Assembly: GCA_951406725.2 (NCBI GenBank) | Contig: OX597821.1 | Coordinates: forward strand, 84,816,001-84,880,000 | Direction: 5' to 3' | Origin: Octopus vulgaris | Lineage: Eukaryota | Length of the DNA: 64,000 bases | Part shown: piece after piece, positions 13,620-46,661 of the stretch | Numbering within the stretch: position 1 is the stretch's first letter | Layout: every line of letters begins with the position of its first letter | Notes under the pieces: model-generated | What the model was told of the DNA's origin: nothing | The model's database searches: none | The model's input: the letters and a program-made list of their open reading frames with translations, nothing else | Position numbers and translations under genes: made by a program

Positions 13620-13801
13620 GTTTAAATATTTGTTGTGCAAGATTTTTTATGTGAAGTCGTGTGTTGAAACAGATATTGTTTCTGGCCGAAATAAGATTAA
13701 GATTAATGTAAAAAATAAATAACACTGAAGCAAAATAACACCAAATATATAGTGCGTGTGTTTTTATTGGCTAAACTGGCAATATGACCATTCCGAAATA
13801 T

Positions 13802-13869
<68 letters not shown>

Positions 13870-14045
13870 GTTTATATATTTGTTGTGCAAGATTTTTTAT
13901 GTGAAGTCGTGTGTTGAAACAGATATTGTTATATTTCGGAATGGTCATTTTGCAAGTTTAGCCTATAAAAACATACGCACTATATATTTGGTGTTATTTT
14001 GCTTCAGTGTTATTTATTTTTTACATTAAACTTGATCTTATTTCG

Positions 14046-14090
14046 GCCAGAGTTCTTTCGTCACACTCCTGTGACCGCATCAGTGGTCCT
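14046..14090 (-). ncRNA. Variant hammerhead-like motif in the inverted pseudo-LTR
   Basis: Inverted copy of 15898-15942. Confidence 0.5.
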
Positions 14091-14573
14091 TTGTTTTCTT
14101 CTTTCTTATTTGTGTGTCTCCTTACTAACCGTCAGCCATTTTGTATTTCTATTGTATGTCTTCATTTGCGCATGCTTATATCTCTATGTGCGTCTATGTT
14201 TATTTAGTGTGTGGTGGGGGGATGCCTGTAATATTTGTATCTTCTGTTTATATACGTTCATGTAATTTGTTTTTGTTTATTCTTATTTTGTTCATGTGTT
14301 TACATCCACTTATTATTATCATTACATATGCTTGTATGTATGCATGTATAACAACAATACTAGTAATAATAATAATAAATAAATAAAAACTTATATAGTT
14401 ATTTATTTCTATTTGTTTATTTATCTATGTATTTATTATGTTTTCGGGATCTTCTACTGTCGTATGTTGTGGTGTGTGCTAGTGTTCCATTCTAGTTTCC
14501 TATTCAGGATAGGTTTATTTTCTATTATGTGTGTAGCTTCTGTAATTAGTCTTATTGTTGCATCTGTTTTATG

Positions 14574-15465
14574 GCTAGAAATTGTGAATAATAAAACCCA
14601 AATCCTTCATTCGTACTATGCCAAACCTATGGCCTCAAAATACTTGATCCACCGGAACACAGCCATTGCGGACAATGCCAAATTCAATATTTTGATGGCA
14701 GACCTCGTCAGAATGATGAGAAATGTGTCACGCATGTTCGAGCCTACAGAATTAAAGAGTCACATACAATATTTCATTCACCGCATGCAGTTTTCAGGTT
14801 ACAGCTATAAAGAAAGGATCAGAGTATACAAAGGAGCCATGAAGAAATTTGATAGTATATTATGTAATGATAGGAATGGGATTTGCCCACTCTATAGGAA
14901 CAAGTCATGGAACACTATAGAAAGGACAAAAAAGAAAATAAGGAAGGCCAACTCTTGGTATGATAGCCATAAATACCAGAGTATCATGTTCGCTGACATT
15001 ACCCCTGGAGGTGAACTGGCGTACCGCTTTAGAAGGACCCTAGACAAACTTAAGCTAAGGATTAAGGTTGTTGAAAAGGCAGGCAACCCTATCAAATCTA
15101 TAATTGGTAGAACCTATCCTTTTAGTAGAACCCCCTGTACGGATAAGTACTGTACTGTATGTAGATTTAGCCCACAAACAAACTGTAAAGCCAGAAATGT
15201 AGTCTATAGTATAAGATGTATAGAGGGACGATGCAGTAACAAGACAACGACATACGTAGGAGAAACGGCAAGAAGCATAGGAGAGCGGGTAAATGAACAT
15301 TGAAGAGAACTCAAGGAAGGTAAAAGCTCATCGATTCTGTACCAACACGCCGAACATGAACACGGGGGATCAATCAACAACATAGAAATTAAAATATTGT
15401 CCACACATAAAACAGATGCAACAATCAGACAAATTACAGAAGCTACACACAATAGAAAATAAACC
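14574..15465 (+). pseudogene. PLE ORF C-terminus: RT thumb, Cys linker and GIY-YIG endonuclease
   Basis: YAKPMASKYLIH...RMQFSGY...CTDKYCTVC...CKARNVVYSIRC...C...YVGETARSIGERVNEH*, continuing in frame as RELKEG..ILYQHAEHEH...RQITEA. The first ~54 aa of the ORF-track entry come from the inverted arm. Confidence 0.85.
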
Positions 15466-15897
15466 TAGCCTAAATAGGAAACTAGAATGTAACACTAGCA
15501 CACACCACAACATATGACGGTAGAGGATCCCGAAAACATAATAAATACACAGATAAATAAGCAAATAGAAATAAATAACTATATAAGTTTATTTTTTTTT
15601 GATTTATCATTATTATTACTAGTATTGTTGTTATACATACATACAAGCATATGTAATGATACAAGCATATATAATAAGTGGATGTAAACACATGAACAAA
15701 ATAAGAATAAACAAAAACAAATTACATGAACGTATATAAACAGAAGATACAAATATTATAGGTATCCCACACACACACACTAAATAAACATAGATGCACA
15801 TAGAGATATAAGCATGCGCAAATGAAGACATACAATAGAAATACAAAATGGCCGACGGTTAGTAAGGAGACACACAAATAAGAAAGAAGAAAACAAA

Positions 15898-15942
15898 GGA
15901 CCACTGATGCGGTCACAGGAGTGTGACGAAAGAACTCTGGCC
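15898..15942 (+). ncRNA. Variant hammerhead-like motif in the PLE pseudo-LTR
   Basis: ggacca-CUGAUGC-g-gucac-aggagu-gugac-GAAA-gaa-CUC-uggcc. Core position A9 is C. Confidence 0.55.
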
Positions 15943-16060
15943 GAAATAAGATCAAGTTTAATGTAAAAAATAAATAACACTGAAGCAAAATAATACCAAA
16001 TATATAGTGCGTGTGTTTTTATAGGCTAAACTTGCAAAATGACCATTCCGAAATATAACA

Positions 16061-16139
<79 letters not shown>

Positions 16140-17392: not shown

Positions 17393-17466
<74 letters not shown>

Positions 17467-17481
17467 GACGGGCTTCTTTTA

Positions 17482-18644
17482 ATTTAGCGAACAAGGATAA
17501 TTATCGGTCCGGGGGATCTCACACTAACCCAAAACCCGTTATTCATCCGAGAATCACCCACCCGAATGCGAGAGCTGGCGTTCCGACCCATCACATAGAT
17601 AGAAATAAGCATATATGGTTTGTAATTCCCTTTGGTAAGCAGATTAGAACTAACCTCCCCCTCATGTTTCGACAAGCCATCGCCAATAACTTCCCCAGAA
17701 ATTCCAAATATTACTCCACGGTTAACTCGCATAAAGTTAGGATAGCTTTCTCCAACACTAAAAACCTCGCCCAGATAATCGCCTCCCATAATAATAGGCT
17801 GCTTACTAAGACCCTATCACCTTTTTCCGGAGGCACAGCTTCTACCGCTCCCGGTTTAATGCTCAGTAGGAATAATAATAGTAGTAATAATGATATGAGA
17901 GCCAGTACAGTGACTCATAATCTCAGCTCCAACCAGGGATTATATACTAGGGGTATAGTTATAAATAGGGGTGTTGTAATTGACGGTAACAATGGCAGTA
18001 GTGAGGTGAGCGCAGCTCGGCTCGTTAGGGTAGAGAGTCCCAATAGCAACCCCAGCATCGTTTCCGGCAATAGCAGCACCACGGGCACTAGCAATGACAG
18101 CACTCTGATAGATAGTGGAGAATCAGGGGTTATTCCGTTAGTTAATAGTGACGTAGTGGAAAATAAAGTAGTAAGCGGCTGCAGTTCTCGCAACAAATAT
18201 AGTGACAGTAACGCAGTTCTAATTTCAGAAACTAATCCTAGCAGAATAAGATTCACGTCGGCGAACTTCAAGATCAGAAACGCCGTCTACCAATGCAAGG
18301 TTTACACGGACTCAGGTGTCTACGCTTATGTCGGGGCCTCATCGTCAAGATTGGCTTTACGAATCTCCAACCATTACGCAACTTTTCGAGACATGAATAA
18401 ACGCCAGACCACGGGGCTTAGCAAGCTAATATGGCGATTGAAGAATACGAACTCAAGCTACAGGCTGGAATGGTCAATTTTGTCGGTGGCCTTCCCATTT
18501 GATAGGGGCAGAAGGAAGTGCAACCTTTGTGTCTCCGAACTCTTCCATATATTGTTCGCCAGAGACCGGATGGTAAACGGACTTTTACAGTCGGCTTTTC
18601 GATGCCCCCATTGGCGGCGTTATACTTATCTTGCTTATAAATAA
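17482..18644 (+). CDS. PLE ORF C-terminal part with GIY-YIG endonuclease (open, no native start)
   Basis: RNKHIWFVIPF...NLAQIIASHN...NAVYQCKV...YVGASS...RISNH...TGLSKLIWRLK...W.I...CNLCVSE...RCPH. The N-terminal ~80 aa of the 466-aa ORF entry are SINE and microsatellite read-through. Confidence 0.8.
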
Positions 18645-19315
18645 CGCTTATAAATAATACCTGCACCCGGTTACACTACTTATATGAAAATAGCCTTTGG
18701 TAATAAATTCTGAAAAAGCCTTTAAGAGAAATATGATTAACCATTGCAAGGGGAATTACTCCTGTGAGATGAATGGGGCTTTGTTTTTGACGACGGGGGG
18801 TTTCTTTGACAAGGCATGATTAGACGAACACACGCACACATAAAATATTTTTCTGCCGCCCGACGGATTTTACAGCAGTGACCATTGTGTAGAGCTGTTT
18901 ACCAACTGACAGCCGCGCGATCAAACGCACACACGTACATATAAAAGGTTTTCTACCCCTTGACGGATTTCTCAGCAGTGACCGGAATGTAGCGCTTCTT
19001 ACCAACTTGCGCCCGCACACATATATAGAACAGTAAACACACACATGTCTCTAAGTAGATTTTGTCTCGCCCCATATAATACATATAATATTCTTTAAAT
19101 AGTCAGAACTTTACTCTCGGTCACAAAGAACATCTACACACCCCGTGCCCTCACCCACCGGAATGACCGCTGCCTGACCCGTTAAAATCTTCAACGCACC
19201 CACCACCCGTTTTCAACATACACTGATAAACAGTTTGGCCATGGGCTCTTAGGAGCCTAGTTCGATTTGTTTTGCTCCGCCTCTGTTCTGTTTTTGTTTT
19301 TTCCAGCGGATTTCC

Positions 19316-19405
19316 TATTTCTTCCTGAAGAGAAAGACACAATATGGTCTCATTATTCAATCGGAATTTGGTAAATTGTGCCTTTCGAAACACGTGTAGA
19401 ATGAA
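19316..19405 (+). ncRNA. Type I hammerhead ribozyme motif
   Basis: uuc-CUGAAGA-gaaag.cacaau...auugug.cuuuc-GAAA-cacgu-GUA-gaa. Palindromic stem III cacgug. Confidence 0.8.
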
Positions 19406-19610
19406 ATAAAACGATTTCTGTTCAATCTTCGTTCAACTCCATTTCTTCAATTCACTAATAATATTAAAATTCAATTATCCGCACCAACGCACGGTTGCAA
19501 CACCATATGGTTGTACCTCCAACCGTGCTGTCTTCTGCTGTGATTTCTGCTACCAAGGTATCGGTTAAACTTTTGATTAATCTGCAACAAGATTATTCAT
19601 CTTTCTATTT

Positions 19611-19682
<72 letters not shown>

Positions 19683-22294: not shown

Positions 22295-23560
22295 CTACGG
22301 TGTACTCTGCCATTTGCAACTTGGATAAAAATGTCGAAGAGTGACGAACTATTCGATGTTTCTATGGGGTCATACGATAGCACAAACATATGCGATCTAG
22401 TGGGCTTATATATATATTGCATACACTACATTATAATTAAGAGGTGTCACATGGCCTAGTGGTTAGAGCAGCGGACTCGCGGTCGAGGGATCGCGAGTTC
22501 GAATCTCAGACCGGGCTCCACGCGGCTCCGGTAGAAGGTAATGGCGAACTTCTGCTAACTCTTTCGCCACAACTTTCTCTCACCCTTTCCTCCTGCATCT
22601 TGCAGCTCGCCTGCGACGGACCGGCGTCTCGTCCAGGTGAGGAACCTATACGCCAAGGAAACCGGGAAACCGGCCCTTATGAGCCAAACATAGCTCGAGA
22701 AAGAACAAACAAAACATTATAATTACCTATCTTATAATGTGGGACTATACCGGGATGATATATTTAGAAAGCGGTTAATTTCTCCTTTTTGTCATTTGGG
22801 GCTAAAAATTACTGTAACTACCTATCATTCTGTAGTTGATTATTTAGATTTGTCATTCGACCTAACTTCTTCCTCTTACAAGTCGTTTCATAAAATTTAT
22901 GGAAAACTTACATACCTAAGTAGTCTTGCCACCCATCGAGCGTACTTAGGAACTTAATAGAGAATATTAGCAAAAATGTGTCAGCTCTCTCGTCTTCTGA
23001 GGAAATTTTTAATAAGGCCACACCATATTACAATAAAGCTTTTTGCTAACAGCGGATTTAGAGAAAAATTAGTTTACAAGTCCCCTTGTAATGATAGTCT
23101 AAACACCAATAGTGATAAAACAAAGAGTAAGAATAGGTCTAGAAATATTATTTGGTTTGTCCCTCCTTTTGCCCTCAAACATTGGCAAGAAATTCCACGT
23201 GCTTTTAGATAAGCACTTCCCGGGTGACCATAAATCCAGGAAATTGTTCAATATGAATTCGGTGGAAAACATTATCACACGAAGCAAATGCCAGAAGAGT
23301 GAAGCTGGCTGTAATTGTCTTGAATCTGAGTCTTGTCCACTTGATAAACTATGTATGACAGAGTCAGTTATATACGCAACTGATGTGATTGTAACCTCCA
23401 ACAACAATAACATAACCGAAAAGACATATATCGGGTTATGCGAAGGAACGTTCAAAAAGCGTTATGCAAATCATTTATCAACATTCCGTTACAGCTTATT
23501 TGGGATACAGCTTATTGAAGGATAGAAATCTACGATATCAAATTGAGTCAATTTGGAAGA
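22295..23560 (+). mobile_element. Decayed Penelope-like element (RT to GIY-YIG), interrupted by a SINE
   Basis: LFDVSMGSYDSTNICDLVGLY, GLYRDD, VDYLDL, RNIIWFVPP, IGKKF..LLDKHFP, CNC..ESCPL..C, TYIGLCEGTFKKRYANH. Confidence 0.85.
22440..22713 (+). mobile_element. SINE family C (tRNA head) with 12-bp TSD
   Basis: Head tggcctagtggttagagcagcggactcgcggtc...gttcgaatc. TSD acattataatta at 22428-22439 and 22714-22725. Confidence 0.85.
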
Positions 23561-24547
23561 TACTACCCGTTCCCAACGGACTGGTCCACAATTGATTTAT
23601 TTATATATTTATATATTTTCTCGTTAGCATATAATTTTATATCACATTTTTATTACTTTTTATTTTATTATATTTAAAATATTTTATATTTCGATATATA
23701 TTTTAATTATTATTTAATTTAATGTTTAAATATTATTATTATATGCATATATTTTAATTATTATTTATTCTAATATTTAAGTATTATTATTATATGCATA
23801 TATATTTCATATTCTCTTTTTATTTACATTTTCTTTATACTTAATGTATTGCAAATTATATTTGCACATGCCCCTCTTTCTCATATTATATCTCATATCA
23901 TACGTTTTGTATATTATTTGTACATAACCCCTTTTTAAATCTGCTCTATCATTCCTTACGTCTTATAAAAAAAAATTCCATCCGATTTTACAACATTCGA
24001 TCGTCGCTTCTCGAGATTTGCAGTCTGCGCAGTTAGTCTAATGGTATCTTCCACATAATCCGTTCGAAGGCATTTCGTCCGGCGTGCTAATGATTCTGCC
24101 AGCTCGTCGCCTCATAAAAGCATAAAATAACAACAGAAATTATATATAAACAAAAACAAACAAACAAAAACATTCATATTCACTTGTTTATTTCTTCAAC
24201 AGGCTGCCATTATGAAGCGTATCAAATAATTCGTTATACGTCTGCGATCCGGTCGATGACACGTTGTACCGCGCTGTACTTACTGAAAACTAAACACGAT
24301 TTTGTGCTCTCACAATGTCATTGTTCTGTCGGTCTATCTGTCACTCTGTCTGCTTGTCTGCTTGTCTGTCTGTCTGTTTGTCTATGTACCTATCGGTCCC
24401 TCTTTCTCAGTGTGTGTGTGTGCGCGCGCATAACACCCTGAACCGTTCTGAAGATTTGTCTGTTAGTTTATTTCTCAGCAGACTTGTATATATATCGGTG
24501 TGCAACATATATATATATATACATATATATATGTATGTATGTATGCA

Positions 24548-24830: not shown

Positions 24831-24977
24831 CGAGTCTATAGTATAAGATCGCTGGAACACCTTATTTTCCTCTAACATGTTACCCAAGACTCTTTTTAAA
24901 TGCCTATTACTGTCTCTATATTATATCTTCAATTTAAAAAAAAAACGTCTTTCTCTATATTTCACTATTTTTATCGT

Positions 24978-25680
24978 AAAGTATACTAGCCATCTCAATA
25001 TGGCTAACCACTAGGGGTGGGTGTTACTGTAGCTTTTTGGCCCCAGGAGATCATCGTCTCCAGCTGGTTTTAGACACAATTTCTGTGCCCTTATGATATT
25101 TGCAAAGGGAGGTCATCCCCTCTCGTAAACCTAAGTGATACGCACGGACTGCAGTTTAGGGATTATTGTCTCTTGTCAACGCACGGTAATCACCGGTTTT
25201 CGATGAGGAGAGACCTGTTTGCGAATATCTATTTAATGTTTTTCCCAGTAACCACTGTCACTGATTTCGAAAAACGGTCTGAAAGCAATAATAAATCTCT
25301 GAACGAGATGTAAACAGTAAGCGCTTTCAGACCGTTTTTCGAAATCAGTGACAGTGGTTACTGGGAAAAACATTAAATAGATATTCGCAAACAGGTCTCT
25401 CTTATCGAAAACCCGTGATTACCGTGTATTGACAAGAGACAATAATCTCGAAACTGGAGTCCGTGCGTATCACTTAGGTTTACGAGAGGGGATGACCTCC
25501 CTTTGCAAATATCATAAGGGCACAGAAATTGTGTCTAAAGCCAGCTGGATACGATGATCCCCTGGGGCTAAAAAGCTACAGTAACACCCACCCCTAGTGG
25601 TTAGCCATATTGCGATGGCTAGAATACTTTATGTTGTCGAGCGGTTACTGTTTACATCTCGTTCAGAGATTTATTATTAT
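24978..25680. repeat. Inverted pair of a ~355-nt circularly permuted structured monomer
   Basis: 24978-25287 mirrors 25323-25630. 25288-25320 mirrors 25645-25679, which lies at the opposite end of the right arm. A homologous locus is at 45270-46140. Confidence 0.9.
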
Positions 25681-26406
25681 TTTTATCTATATTCTATTAT
25701 TATCATGTTTACATATCTATATATCTATATCTCCATGCTCTCATCAGCAGAACATCTATCTCCTATTACAGTGTAAACGTTTGTGCCTGTTCCAAACAAC
25801 AATATCCAGCCTTTTAGGTTTACGCTTCTCGGAAATGTTTGAACGAGAATGTTCCACCAATATTCCTTGTGTTGATGTTTGTGTATGAATTCAATAACAT
25901 AGTATTCTCTACATTTCTTCCAGAACTGACTTTTTTCTTGTAACGTCGTATCGTAAAGGGACGTAGTACTTAGTTGATATTTCTGGGCAGCTGTTAATCA
26001 TGTGTAACGTCTTCCACAGAAATATGACCGTATCCACAAAATCACACCTAATCTGTGTATGTATGTATGTATGTATGTACGTACGTATGTATGTATGTAT
26101 GTATGTATGTATGTATGTATGTATGTATGTATGTATGTATGTATGTATGTATGTATGTATGTATGTATGTATGCATATATGTATGTATGTACGTATGTAT
26201 GTGTGCATATGCATGTGTGTGCATGTGTATGCCACCGTTTGGCTGTCAATCTTGGAGAGTTGAAGTTCTAGTAACTTAGCAGTTGCGATAAAAAGAACGA
26301 TAGATAAAAAGAACATATTAATACTGGAGACGTTTCGCTTGATCAAATCCCTCAAAGTTGTGATTGTACAACACATGGCTGTGCAATGACTGAAACAAAT
26401 AGAAGA

Positions 26407-27724: not shown

Positions 27725-29533
27725 TTTTAAAAGACATATACCATTCCATGCCGCAGGCGTGGCTGTATGGTAAGAAGTCTACTTCACAACCACATTGTTC
27801 GGAATTCATTTCCACAGCGTGGGATCAAAACCTTGCGAGTGGATTTGGTATACGGAAACTGAAAGAAGTCCGTCGCATATATCTGTGCGTGTTTTTGAGT
27901 CTCTGTTCGCCCCCACCACCGCTGCTAGACAACCGGTGTTAGAGTGTTTACCTCCTCGTAATTTAGCGGTTCGGCATAAGAGATCCGATAGAATAACTAC
28001 CAAGTTTTTTAAAAATAAGTACCATCCTGGATTGGTACTTCTTTCTTTATTTTTTTTTACCATTCCTGAAAGGATGAAAGGCAAAATTATTGGAACTCAA
28101 AGCACTGTGTGTCAGAAAGAAATACCTTGAGACCTTCTAACTGATGCTCTGATGACACTGTCAATTCGCTGCCCGAATTCTTGTCGGGTTTTTGTAAAAA
28201 GTCGAAAATTTTGGATCGGTTCAGAGTTGTTTTAATTACTGTTCTTTCATTACAAAATTCAACCATATTTAAATGTAATTTCTCATTTAGATCTAAAACT
28301 CCAAAATACTCCAGCAAACATGTTTGTATTTTCGTAAGGAATTGTCTAAAAAAGGTGTTGAATTTCTGTCAAAGTCGAATAATTCTTCCAGATATTGAGA
28401 CTCAGAATTATGAAGCAATTTGAATAATCTTCAATAAGCTCGTTAATCTATTTAGCATCTAATTTTTTTAACGTTGGTAACTTGATAGCCAAACAACAAA
28501 AACAACAACAACAACAATAATAATAATAGTAAATAAAATGAAATGAAATAAAATAAAATAAAATTCATGTCAAACTTTATATTTATTTTTATTTTTTAAA
28601 TAAGACAAAATATTGGAGACAACTGCGGCAGAAGTTTAATTATGTTTTCTGTTTTAAACAACTAATTTCAGTTCTGCAACAACTAATACGTTTCAAAAAC
28701 TTCTGATAGTTCTATGGAATATTCTTCAGGTGAAACAAGCTTGAATAATTGAAAGAACCAGCAGTTGGTTTGATTAAGAAATAAGTTCTTTAGTATTTGT
28801 GGGAATGCGATATATTATTTCAATACAAGGGTGTATATGACGAATAATTTCTTTAAAATCGAACTAAGAATACAGGACACACCAAACAACCGAGAACAAA
28901 TATTGGTTTCAAATTTTGGCACTAGGCCAGCAATTTAGGGGAGGGATTAAGTGGATTACATCGACCCCAGTGTTGAAACTGGTACTTATTTTACTGTCCT
29001 TGAAAGGATGAAAGGCAAAATCGACCTCGGGGAATTTGAACTCAGAACGTGAAGACGGACGAAATGCTGCTAAGCATTTTACTTGGAGTACTAACACTTC
29101 TGCCAGCTCGCCGCCTTACCGAGAGCAAGGTGTTACACAAGAAAAACAAAGACACTAAGCAGAAAAACAATAATTTTGCCTTTCATCCTTTCAGGAATGG
29201 TAAAAAAATAAAGAAAGAAGTACCAATCCATTATGGTACTTATTTTTTAAAAACTTGGTAGTTATTCTATCGGATCTCTTATGCCGAACTGCTAAATTAC
29301 GAGGAGGTAAACACTCTAACACCGGTTGTCTAGCAGCGGTGGTGGGGGCGAACAGAGACTCAAAAACACGCACAGATATATGCGACGGGCTTCTTTCAGT
29401 TTCCGTATACCAAATCCACTCGCAAGGTTTTGATCCCACGCAGTGGGAATGAATTCCGAACAATGTGGTTGTGAAGTAGACTTCTTACCATACAGCCACG
29501 CCTGCGGCATGGAATGGCATATGTCTTTTAAAA
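27725..29533. repeat. Local inverted duplication (~365-bp arms, ~1.07-kb spacer)
   Basis: 27725-28092 is a near-identical reverse complement of 29168-29533. The unit is a decayed SINE A plus a SINE B fragment plus flank. Confidence 0.9.
28900..29117 (-). mobile_element. SINE family B-related copy with a different tail
   Basis: Reverse complement of the head ggcggcgagctggcagaa and the central ttcatcctttc motif. Confidence 0.75.
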
Positions 29534-45269: not shown

Positions 45270-45574
45270 GCGTAAGGGGTATTAGCCATCTGAATGTGGC
45301 TAGCCACTGGGGGGGGGGGGGGGTTACTGATGCTTTTAGCCCCAGGCGATCAACGTCACCAGAAGGACTTTAGACACTATCTCAGTGCCCTTGTGTTATA
45401 TATATATATATTTAAAGAACTTAGGAAATAATAAGTATTCCAGATTAGCAGGACATTTACTATTTTACATTTTACTAATGCAATGTAAACAGTATCATTT
45501 ATAATGTTATTACAAATTTGGGATTTTACCAATAGAACCGCAACTCCTATTTCAGGCCAAATCCAAATTTGTAA

Positions 45575-45611
<37 letters not shown>

Positions 45612-46134
45612 CGTAAGGGGTATTAGCCATCTGAATGTGGCTAGCCACTGGGGGGGGGGGGGTACTGATGCTTTTATCCTCAGGCGATCAACGTCACCAG
45701 AAGGACTTTAGACACTATCTCAGTGCCCTTGTGTTATTTGCAAAGGGAGGTCATCCTCCCTCGAAGACCCGAGTACTACATACGGTCTATAGTTTCAAGG
45801 TAATTGCCTCTCGTCAACGCATGGTAAGCACCGGTCTTCGATGAAGGAGTCCCCTTGCAAATAATATATAACGTTTTTCACAGTAACCACTGTCACTGAT
45901 GTAGAAAAACTGTCTGAAAACAATAATAAATCTCTGAACGAGGGTCTTCGAGGGAGGATGACTTCCCTTTGCAAATAACACAAGGGCACTGAGATAGTGT
46001 CTAAAGTCCTTCTGGTGACGTTGATCGCCTGGGGCTAAAAGCATCAGTAACCCCCCCCCCCAGTGGATAGCCACATTCAGATGGCTAATACCCCTTACGT
46101 TGTCGAGCGGTTACTGTTTATATCTCGTTCAGAG

Positions 46135-46140
<6 letters not shown>
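45270..46140. repeat. Second locus of the ~355-nt structured monomer family (partial, full and inverted partial copies)
   Basis: 45270-45398 partial (+), 45611-45942 (+), 45942-46140 (-). Clear homology to 24978-25680. Confidence 0.9.
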
Positions 46141-46256: not shown

Positions 46257-46625
46257 AGTTATGTGAGTGTCTGTCTCCTACGATTTAGATTCTTAACTTC
46301 TCCCACATTTTGTTTAACCAAAACCGGGTATCTTATAGTCGTGATTCATATCGAGCCCTTCTGGGTATTAGCGCGCATCTACGATGAGTCTACGATTTCA
46401 AAAATAATTTACCATAATTTTTTTCCATTTTAAAGCATATTTTTTAAATAAAGGGAAGTAACTCTCTGAAAATGTCTACGATGAGTCAACGATTTTAAAA
46501 AATATTTACCATAATTTTTTTTCCATTTTTAATGTATTTTTTGCTGTTTTTTTGGCTATAACTCTCTAAAAATGCTTTATAGTTATTACACTTACAAACC
46601 CGAGCAACGCCGGGCGATACTGCTA

Positions 46626-46626
<1 letters not shown>
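46160..46626 (+). mobile_element. Non-autonomous Helitron with 5' end duplicated around (TA)n
   Basis: Same body as 36125-36517. Ends CTAG|T. Confidence 0.85.

Positions 46627-46661
<35 letters not shown>

Follow-up and report, generated by a model that had tools for sequence, protein, structure and literature searches.

Animal non-LTR retrozymes and Penelope-like elements (PLEs) are the closest described systems to the repeat reported here. PLE insertions are marked by an inverted 5'-truncated copy and a one-sided tail of 30–40 bp (PMC8557442; PMC2377424), and in vitro the tail has been shown to equal the distance between two internal start sites of the reverse transcriptase (RT) (PMC11167929). 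As set out in PMC4209133, a palindromic loop 3 lets PLE hammerheads act as dimers, hammerheads of this type are frequently weak in vitro, and a U3-A8 covariant of the C3-G8 pair is found in Schistosoma PLEs, with about 1,300 hits. For the Poseidon PLE in vitro, hammerhead cleavage was described as not needed, and unprocessed RNA was used (PMC11167929). The case for mobilization of animal retrozymes by PLEs has been built on their common hammerheads, their co-occurrence and the relatedness of their sequences (PMC7229834; 10.64898/2026.07.22.740005). A 2026 preprint argues that retrozymes are non-autonomous PLEs and lists nine Xenopus retrozyme dimers, one of which was cleaved and eight of which were not (10.64898/2026.07.22.740005).

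The window analyzed in this study, a stretch of 64,000 nucleotides from Octopus vulgaris, contains at 24977–25678 an inverted pair of an abundant non-coding 356-nt repeat unit. The family combines a closed unit, a hammerhead anatomy, two ends that lie 47 nt apart, inverted pairs with AT-rich or (TA)n flanks, and many copies; we consider it very likely that the element is a hammerhead-bearing non-autonomous PLE. The fuller reading, in which two inverted 356-nt units with U3:A8 hammerheads were inserted by a PLE RT-endonuclease from a predicted small circular RNA, has in our judgment an even chance of being correct. Feature coordinates are collected in Table 1.

The left arm is the reverse complement of the right arm but starts 47 nt into the unit. 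In sense numbering it comprises unit positions 318–356 followed by 1–309, a circular permutation minus 8 nt, and it crosses the tail-to-body junction at 25287/25286, where the two ends of the right arm read as one junction. The coordinates thereby confirm an initial annotation of this DNA, which had described an inverted pair of a permuted unit and a left arm reading continuously through both ends of the right arm. Because the arms are separated by 13 substitutions and 1 indel across 310 nt (~4.5%), the pair is not a copied assembly error. The unit has a GC content of 0.42 and no LTR/PBS/PPT layout (PBS and PPT judged by eye). The longest stop-to-stop frame entirely within the pair encodes 79 amino acids and the pair has no RT or GIY-YIG ORF, so it is not an autonomous PLE; the lack of a coding motif stated in the annotation is borne out, as is that of pol III A and B boxes, none of which was found in the pair by a pattern search. 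The annotation had also stated that there was no target-site duplication, but an exact 10-bp direct repeat abuts both ends of the pair. A repeat of this length was reached by 1.6% of 3406 AT-rich control pairs subjected to the same lenient search as the pair ends, and it is a probable target-site duplication. If transcribed, residues 24977–25631 would form a near-perfect hairpin of ~310 bp with 93% of the bases paired, a possible ADAR or Dicer substrate that would block hammerhead folding. A-to-I editing of this hairpin was considered; A>G and T>C places were about as numerous in sequencing runs guessed to be RNA as in DNA runs.

Table 1. Positions of the repeat unit, its parts and its other copies in the window
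Feature	Position	Strand	Description
Left copy of probable target-site duplication	24966–24975	+	10 bp; exact repeat of 25678–25687
Left arm	24977–25325	−	348–349 nt of the 356-nt unit; sense strand −; outer end is the short end, without tail
Left-arm hammerhead	25147–25179	−	Core 25179–25173; predicted cut 25147/25146; palindromic loop 3
Right arm	25323–25678	+	Exactly one 356-nt unit; sense strand +; outer end is the long end, with tail
Long predicted rod	25380–25513	+	Extension of hammerhead stem I; RNAfold, RNAalifold
Right-arm minimal type I hammerhead	25429–25461	+	U3:A8 core, 4-bp stem II, GAAA, 2-bp stem III, GUC
Penelope-type tail	25632–25678	+	47 nt; separates the two preferred outer ends, seen at arm ends in both copies and in piles of loose ends
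Right copy of probable target-site duplication	25678–25687	+	10 bp; exact repeat of 24966–24975
Third, 5'-truncated fragment	45273–45399	−	Ends near the short end
Second, independent inverted pair	45611–46140		78–83% identical; same layout; (TA)n on both sides

The sense strand of the unit is the plus strand in the right arm, which holds the ribozyme motif and folds better than the opposite strand (z −3.25 vs −1.73). The outward-facing 3' ends of a coding PLE at 13868–16061, described below, lead to the same assignment. The strand quoted in the initial annotation is accordingly the antisense strand. Among the helices listed there, gatatttgcaa/ttgcgaatatc, gtgat/atcac, tagccat/atggcta and gttactg/cagtaac are present in the predicted folds, whereas ccctt/aaggg does not form as such, despite being complementary on inspection. 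A SECIS-like AUGA..AA..GA pattern near 25491–25530 was rejected, as its spacing is short, it accompanies no ORF and it is paired within the conserved rod.

The motif in the right arm is a variant minimal type I hammerhead, for which self-cleavage is a prediction from the sequence. The UUGACAA core (25429–25435) is followed by stem II (25436–25439/25446–25449), which opens with a G-C pair, by GAAA (25450–25453), by the 2-bp stem III with a tetraloop, and by GUC, with the predicted cut at 25461/25462. The defining parts of a hammerhead are all present: the N3-UGA-N7-N8-A9 core with its 3:8 pair, GAAA, NUH, helices I–III and G10.1-C11.1. The base of stem I and the loop palindrome are mutated in the right arm, the left-arm hammerhead has private mutations at G12 and in stem II, and a fully intact ribozyme is missing from every arm in the window. 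A palindromic loop 3 is found, with differing letters, in the left arms of both pairs; the palindrome is broken in the right arm of the first pair. CUGANGA is absent from both strands of the right arm and from the sense strand of the left arm, in agreement with the initial annotation, which had concluded from the lack of this core that there was no hammerhead; a CUGANGA search is blind to the U3:A8 core, and the hammerhead was overlooked. In place of the novel cleavage or processing motif that had been proposed, the unit has a published hammerhead variant. An antisense-strand candidate (CUGAACGAG, the reverse complement of the tail) was discarded because its core spacing is wrong and no stem I was seen by eye.

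Comparison with the Rfam ribozyme models, which the annotation had recommended, gave no ribozyme family among 12 matches to the pair at E values up to 10, these being inverted-repeat hairpin artifacts, and gave no matches in the whole window at gathering scores. Since a canonical motif at 19325 is missed as well, the hammerhead models are insensitive here. The hammerhead is the only match in the unit to a descriptor that allows five core variants on both strands and was written after the motif had been seen; any match occurred in 7 of 5000 dinucleotide shuffles. The same five-variant descriptor found one chance-looking locus in the rest of the window. When three arms are aligned, pairing is kept in 53 of 57 cells (93%), and both sides are changed in 3 of 19 pairs, as compared with 19–53% of cells paired and no double changes in slid controls. 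The observed score was reached by 22 of 500 shuffles, an overlap that is expected with so few sequences (three arms from two insertions).

A profile search of the window gave six matches that comprise five arms and a weak antisense self-match of the rod. In the second inverted pair, the left arm (about 332 nt) runs through the same tail-to-body junction and has a hammerhead with its core at 45817 (minus strand), in which the 3:8 pair is U3:G8 and U16.1 is changed to A. The right arm of this pair, about 200 nt, starts 16 nt after the cut site. No direct tandem dimer of the 356-nt unit was found in the window. The copies in the window have decayed since their insertion and are probably inactive. 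Two other types of repeat were observed nearby. A repeat at 46280–46628 has internal direct repeats and terminates in a short hairpin and CTAGT, with (AT)n beyond, an arrangement that we take to resemble a Helitron 3' end. A SINE-like repeat forms a 332-nt inverted pair (27725–28056 and 29202–29533) with its members 1.1 kb apart and 98% identical, unusually alike for two separate insertions.

In both inverted pairs, one arm ends at the short end and the other extends ~47 nt further. The marks of Penelope insertion are all found: an inverted 5'-truncated partner, a one-sided tail, and an AT-rich or (TA)n target. The length of the tail, 47 nt as compared with the usual 30–40, is a point against this assignment; the tail of the coding PLE in the window is about 55 nt. 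The junction quoted in the initial annotation is best taken to be the tail end, that is, the long RT start site, and not as a ligation point, which in a circle would be the hammerhead cut at 25461/25462. Because a ligated circle would read like genomic DNA at the quoted junction, back-splice reads would be non-discriminating. Two broader proposals of the annotation gain support: a retrozyme-like parasite put in by Penelope-like machinery, and a template that was circular or head-to-tail.

The 3' fragment of a coding PLE at 13868–16061 serves as an internal example of PLE insertion in this genome. It has inverted pLTRs with their 3' ends outward, a one-armed tail of ~55 nt and (TA)n flanks. Residues 14575–15300 have 90% identity with a protein named as an RT-domain protein of Octopus vulgaris (three matches among 288 candidates); the GIY-YIG match is weak (E 0.022), and the homologue has RT motifs ahead of it, as judged by eye. 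Near 15904–15955 there is an unusual motif resembling a hammerhead, in which the core reads CUGAUGC and an additional hairpin is flanked by two GAAA boxes, and a small piece at 13620–13806 is related to this PLE. Another PLE 3' fragment (17466–19613), presumably Neptune-like, has a GIY-YIG-like C terminus by eye with no Pfam match. It includes, at 19325–19398, a canonical CUGAAGA hammerhead with a very long stem II and a palindromic loop 3; the cut lies 215 nt from the 3' end of the fragment, as compared with 217 nt in the 356-nt unit. A degenerate fragment with RT and endonuclease (22745–23750, by eye) is located ~1.2 kb to the left of the pair. No significant DNA similarity was found between the unit and the three coding PLE fragments in the window; the best E value, 0.07, belongs to a 23-nt likeness to the neighboring RT fragment, which was taken as chance. 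A Naiad origin of the unit was abandoned when the hammerhead was found.

Contigs from 4 of 24 listed sequencing runs (X1, X4, X12 and X16) were compared with the left arm as reference. None of the listed runs is recorded as RNA. Runs X12 and X16 are RNA by guess and are represented by contigs only; they have no bearing on expression level, strand or ends. In the DNA runs, 3445 and 3734 contigs match the left arm, with a summed depth that is not a copy number. In these two runs, positions 25158 and 25160 are intact in 98–99% of the depth; the hammerhead core is kept by the family majority, which also restores G12 and the stem II A-U pair, both lost in the left arm. At least seven variants fall within the ribozyme span, comprising two restorations, one change at the free N7 position and four exchanges among G-C, G-U and A-U pairs, and among the variants listed none hits the invariant core. 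The stem II variants at 25162 and 25169 are read position by position, without phase. Eight X4 contigs leave the reference at A13 and give a consensus with a canonical CUGAUGA core in the same register (0.7 agreement, with C opposed to A at the base of stem II). From these contigs, cores of the C3:G8 and the U3:A8 type appear to coexist in the octopus family, in sister lineages.

The contigs also bear on the ends of the unit. Among the rows listed, loose ends with mixed AT-rich flanks occur at the short end in 49 contigs of X1 and 42 of X4, and at the long end in 59 contigs of X4. Four of ten joint rows are opposite-strand joints at other breakpoints, found in one contig each and in three of the four runs, and 24 X4 contigs turn into an inverted tail at 25038. 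Contigs with at least 31 letters on each side of 25288 span the tail-to-body junction in three of the four runs; record 23 of X16 crosses it by 39 letters, and records 7 and 31, which cross by only 4 and 9 letters, were excluded from this support. The depth is 30–60 times higher at the 3' end of the unit than in mid-body, and many contigs diverge upstream. The excess depth near the junction and the 3' end indicates that these parts are common to sister subfamilies or to a coding partner. Across the cut site the depth changes by 4.3-, 5.0-, 4.1- and 2.5-fold in the four runs, with no end pile listed; this step could reflect 5' ends at the cut or, equally, divergence of sister subfamilies within stem II. 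Some of the contigs with loose ends before 24976, in each of the four runs, share one alternative sequence past the short end, which suggests a sister subfamily with a different tail. A metagenome scan with the tail pattern gave no matches.

The following route would account for a hammerhead-bearing non-autonomous PLE of this form. RNA would be made through head-to-tail copies elsewhere in the genome, and adjacent hammerheads would pair by their palindromic loop 3, cut after GUC and free monomers. A host ligase would then circularize the monomers; in the circle, the lone hammerhead with its 2-bp stem III would be mostly inactive. The PLE protein would introduce nicks ~10 bp apart in the two strands of AT-rich DNA and prime reverse transcription internally, from sites that lie 170 and 217 nt downstream of the cut, the two start sites giving one arm with a tail and one without. 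Finally, two cDNAs, usually 5'-truncated and here no longer than one unit, would be joined head to head.

The form of the template is reflected in the lengths of the arms, 356, 348, about 332 and about 200 nt. None exceeds one unit, their starting points differ, and three of the four represent 93–100% of a unit; in the first pair, the arms begin at different points and each ends within 8 nt of a complete round. This argument is post hoc and is drawn from four arms. Three arms continue across the cut site, which means that the template was uncut, was re-ligated or was jumped. The absence of any arm longer than one unit, combined with the differing starts, suits a circle that was copied once. 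A circular template is only hinted at by these sequences, and we regard the question of whether it was specifically a circle as evenly balanced. That the insertions are a direct genomic record of a PLE RT copying a retrozyme RNA circle exactly once from two internal starts is a tentative proposal, and on balance an unlikely one. Were it true, once-round copying would provide the missing mechanism that connects animal retrozymes with Penelope-like elements, and the unit would be a miniature 356-nt cis-substrate for PLE insertion.

The same non-autonomous PLE with its hammerhead could instead have been copied from a linear, uncut, head-to-tail transcript of a tandem master locus, a plausible account to which we give clearly less than an even chance. 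It explains the permuted junction equally well, and the passage of three arms straight across the cut site is in its favor. In vitro, moreover, hammerhead mutants had no effect on PAc insertion and unprocessed RNA was the main substrate (PMC11167929). A linear multimer, however, offers no reason for the arms of the first pair to end within 8 nt of one unit from differing starts, and circles are described as the main RNA form of the similar-sized mussel retrozymes (PMC7229834). A further account treats the arms as only the 3' pseudo-LTR that 5' truncation has left of a full-length coding PLE. The greater depth at the 3' end and the upstream divergence of many contigs are consistent with it, opposite-strand minimal hammerheads 100–700 bp apart have been read as truncated PLEs (PMC4209133), and it was in a coding family of PLEs that the U3:A8 core was first seen. 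The tail of a coding PLE, however, runs into the end of the ORF of the next unit, whereas the octopus tail returns to the beginning of the same 356 nt, which makes the unit closed and non-coding. This closed junction, shared by two copies with ~20% divergence and by contigs of other runs, already weakens the pseudo-LTR account, against which the short maximum frame also counts, and we consider it improbable.

The version given in the initial annotation, a circular RNA parasite that lacks a ribozyme and uses an unknown motif, would make the hammerhead likeness chance or a dead relic. Although there is no canonical core or Rfam match and the motif is mutated in every local arm, the family majority restores the motif, its variants respect the pairs, sister contigs have the canonical core in register, and U3:A8 is a published natural variant (PMC4209133); this version is very improbable. 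Misassembly or template switching can create long inverted repeats, and the pair might also be a DNA-level fold-back element or MITE. The ~4.5% divergence of the arms, their unequal permuted ends, the flanking duplication, the recurrence of the layout at 45611–46140 and the opposite-strand joints at other breakpoints in independent runs all stand against an origin of this kind, which we find scarcely credible.

The hammerhead-bearing non-autonomous PLE is a parasite of a type that is itself already known, and its U3:A8 variant is already described in Schistosoma PLEs. A retrozyme-sized unit with a PLE-specific tail and inversion is a mechanistic footprint of PLE mobilization, and the choice between circle and multimer becomes testable by arm lengths across an octopus genome. 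Scans limited to CUGANGA will miss whole families. A search of the literature, with repeat libraries and most subscription papers outside its scope, found no description of a cephalopod retrozyme or of this 356-nt family; the family may already be in repeat libraries under an uninformative name.

As compared with animal non-LTR retrozymes, and especially the 350–390-bp mussel repeats, the octopus element has a similar unit size and a GC content of 42% and is likewise non-coding (PMC7229834; 10.64898/2026.07.22.740005). It shares with the mussel type a type I hammerhead, a weak palindromic helix III, a duplication longer than 4 bp, a mollusc host and the presence of coding PLEs alongside. Its unit falls within the 150–450 bp given for non-LTR retrozymes, which are non-coding, have a GC content under 50% and have a type I hammerhead. 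In contrast to these elements as described, it occurs in the window in inverted pairs that are dispersed and have PLE tails, not in direct tandem arrays, and it has a U3:A8 core. Retrozymes are further defined by direct tandem arrays of at least two units with hammerheads and by expression as linear and circular RNA monomers, and the octopus element is therefore filed as a non-autonomous PLE of the retrozyme type and not as a proven retrozyme. The EN+ PLEs that have minimal hammerheads in their pLTRs (PMC4209133, PMC8557442, PMC11167929) show the same inverted 5'-truncated partner, one-sided tail, AT-rich or (TA)n targets and minimal hammerhead upstream of the tail. The core covariation is the same as in the U3-A8 variant of Schistosoma Cercyon (PMC4209133). 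The octopus unit differs from EN+ PLEs in having no RT/EN ORF, in closing on itself at 356 nt, in its 47-nt tail, and in a stem II of 4 bp as compared with 7–8 bp. Chlamys PLEs such as MRC1 are likewise non-autonomous and non-coding, with pLTR-like and head-to-tail insertions, but they are algal, most are described as lacking canonical hammerheads, and they have 3' ends in common with identified autonomous partners, whereas the three coding PLE fragments in the octopus window have no significant DNA similarity to the unit (PMC8557442 for the Chlamys elements). Naiad PLEs also have (TA)n targets and tandem or inverted insertions and, as described in the same source, no canonical hammerhead core; in cephalopods they are reported to be long-dead remnants, whereas the octopus unit has the full hammerhead anatomy and no ORF. 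By analogy with these systems, the element would work like an animal non-LTR retrozyme and insert like a PLE, in agreement with the view put forward in the 2026 preprint.
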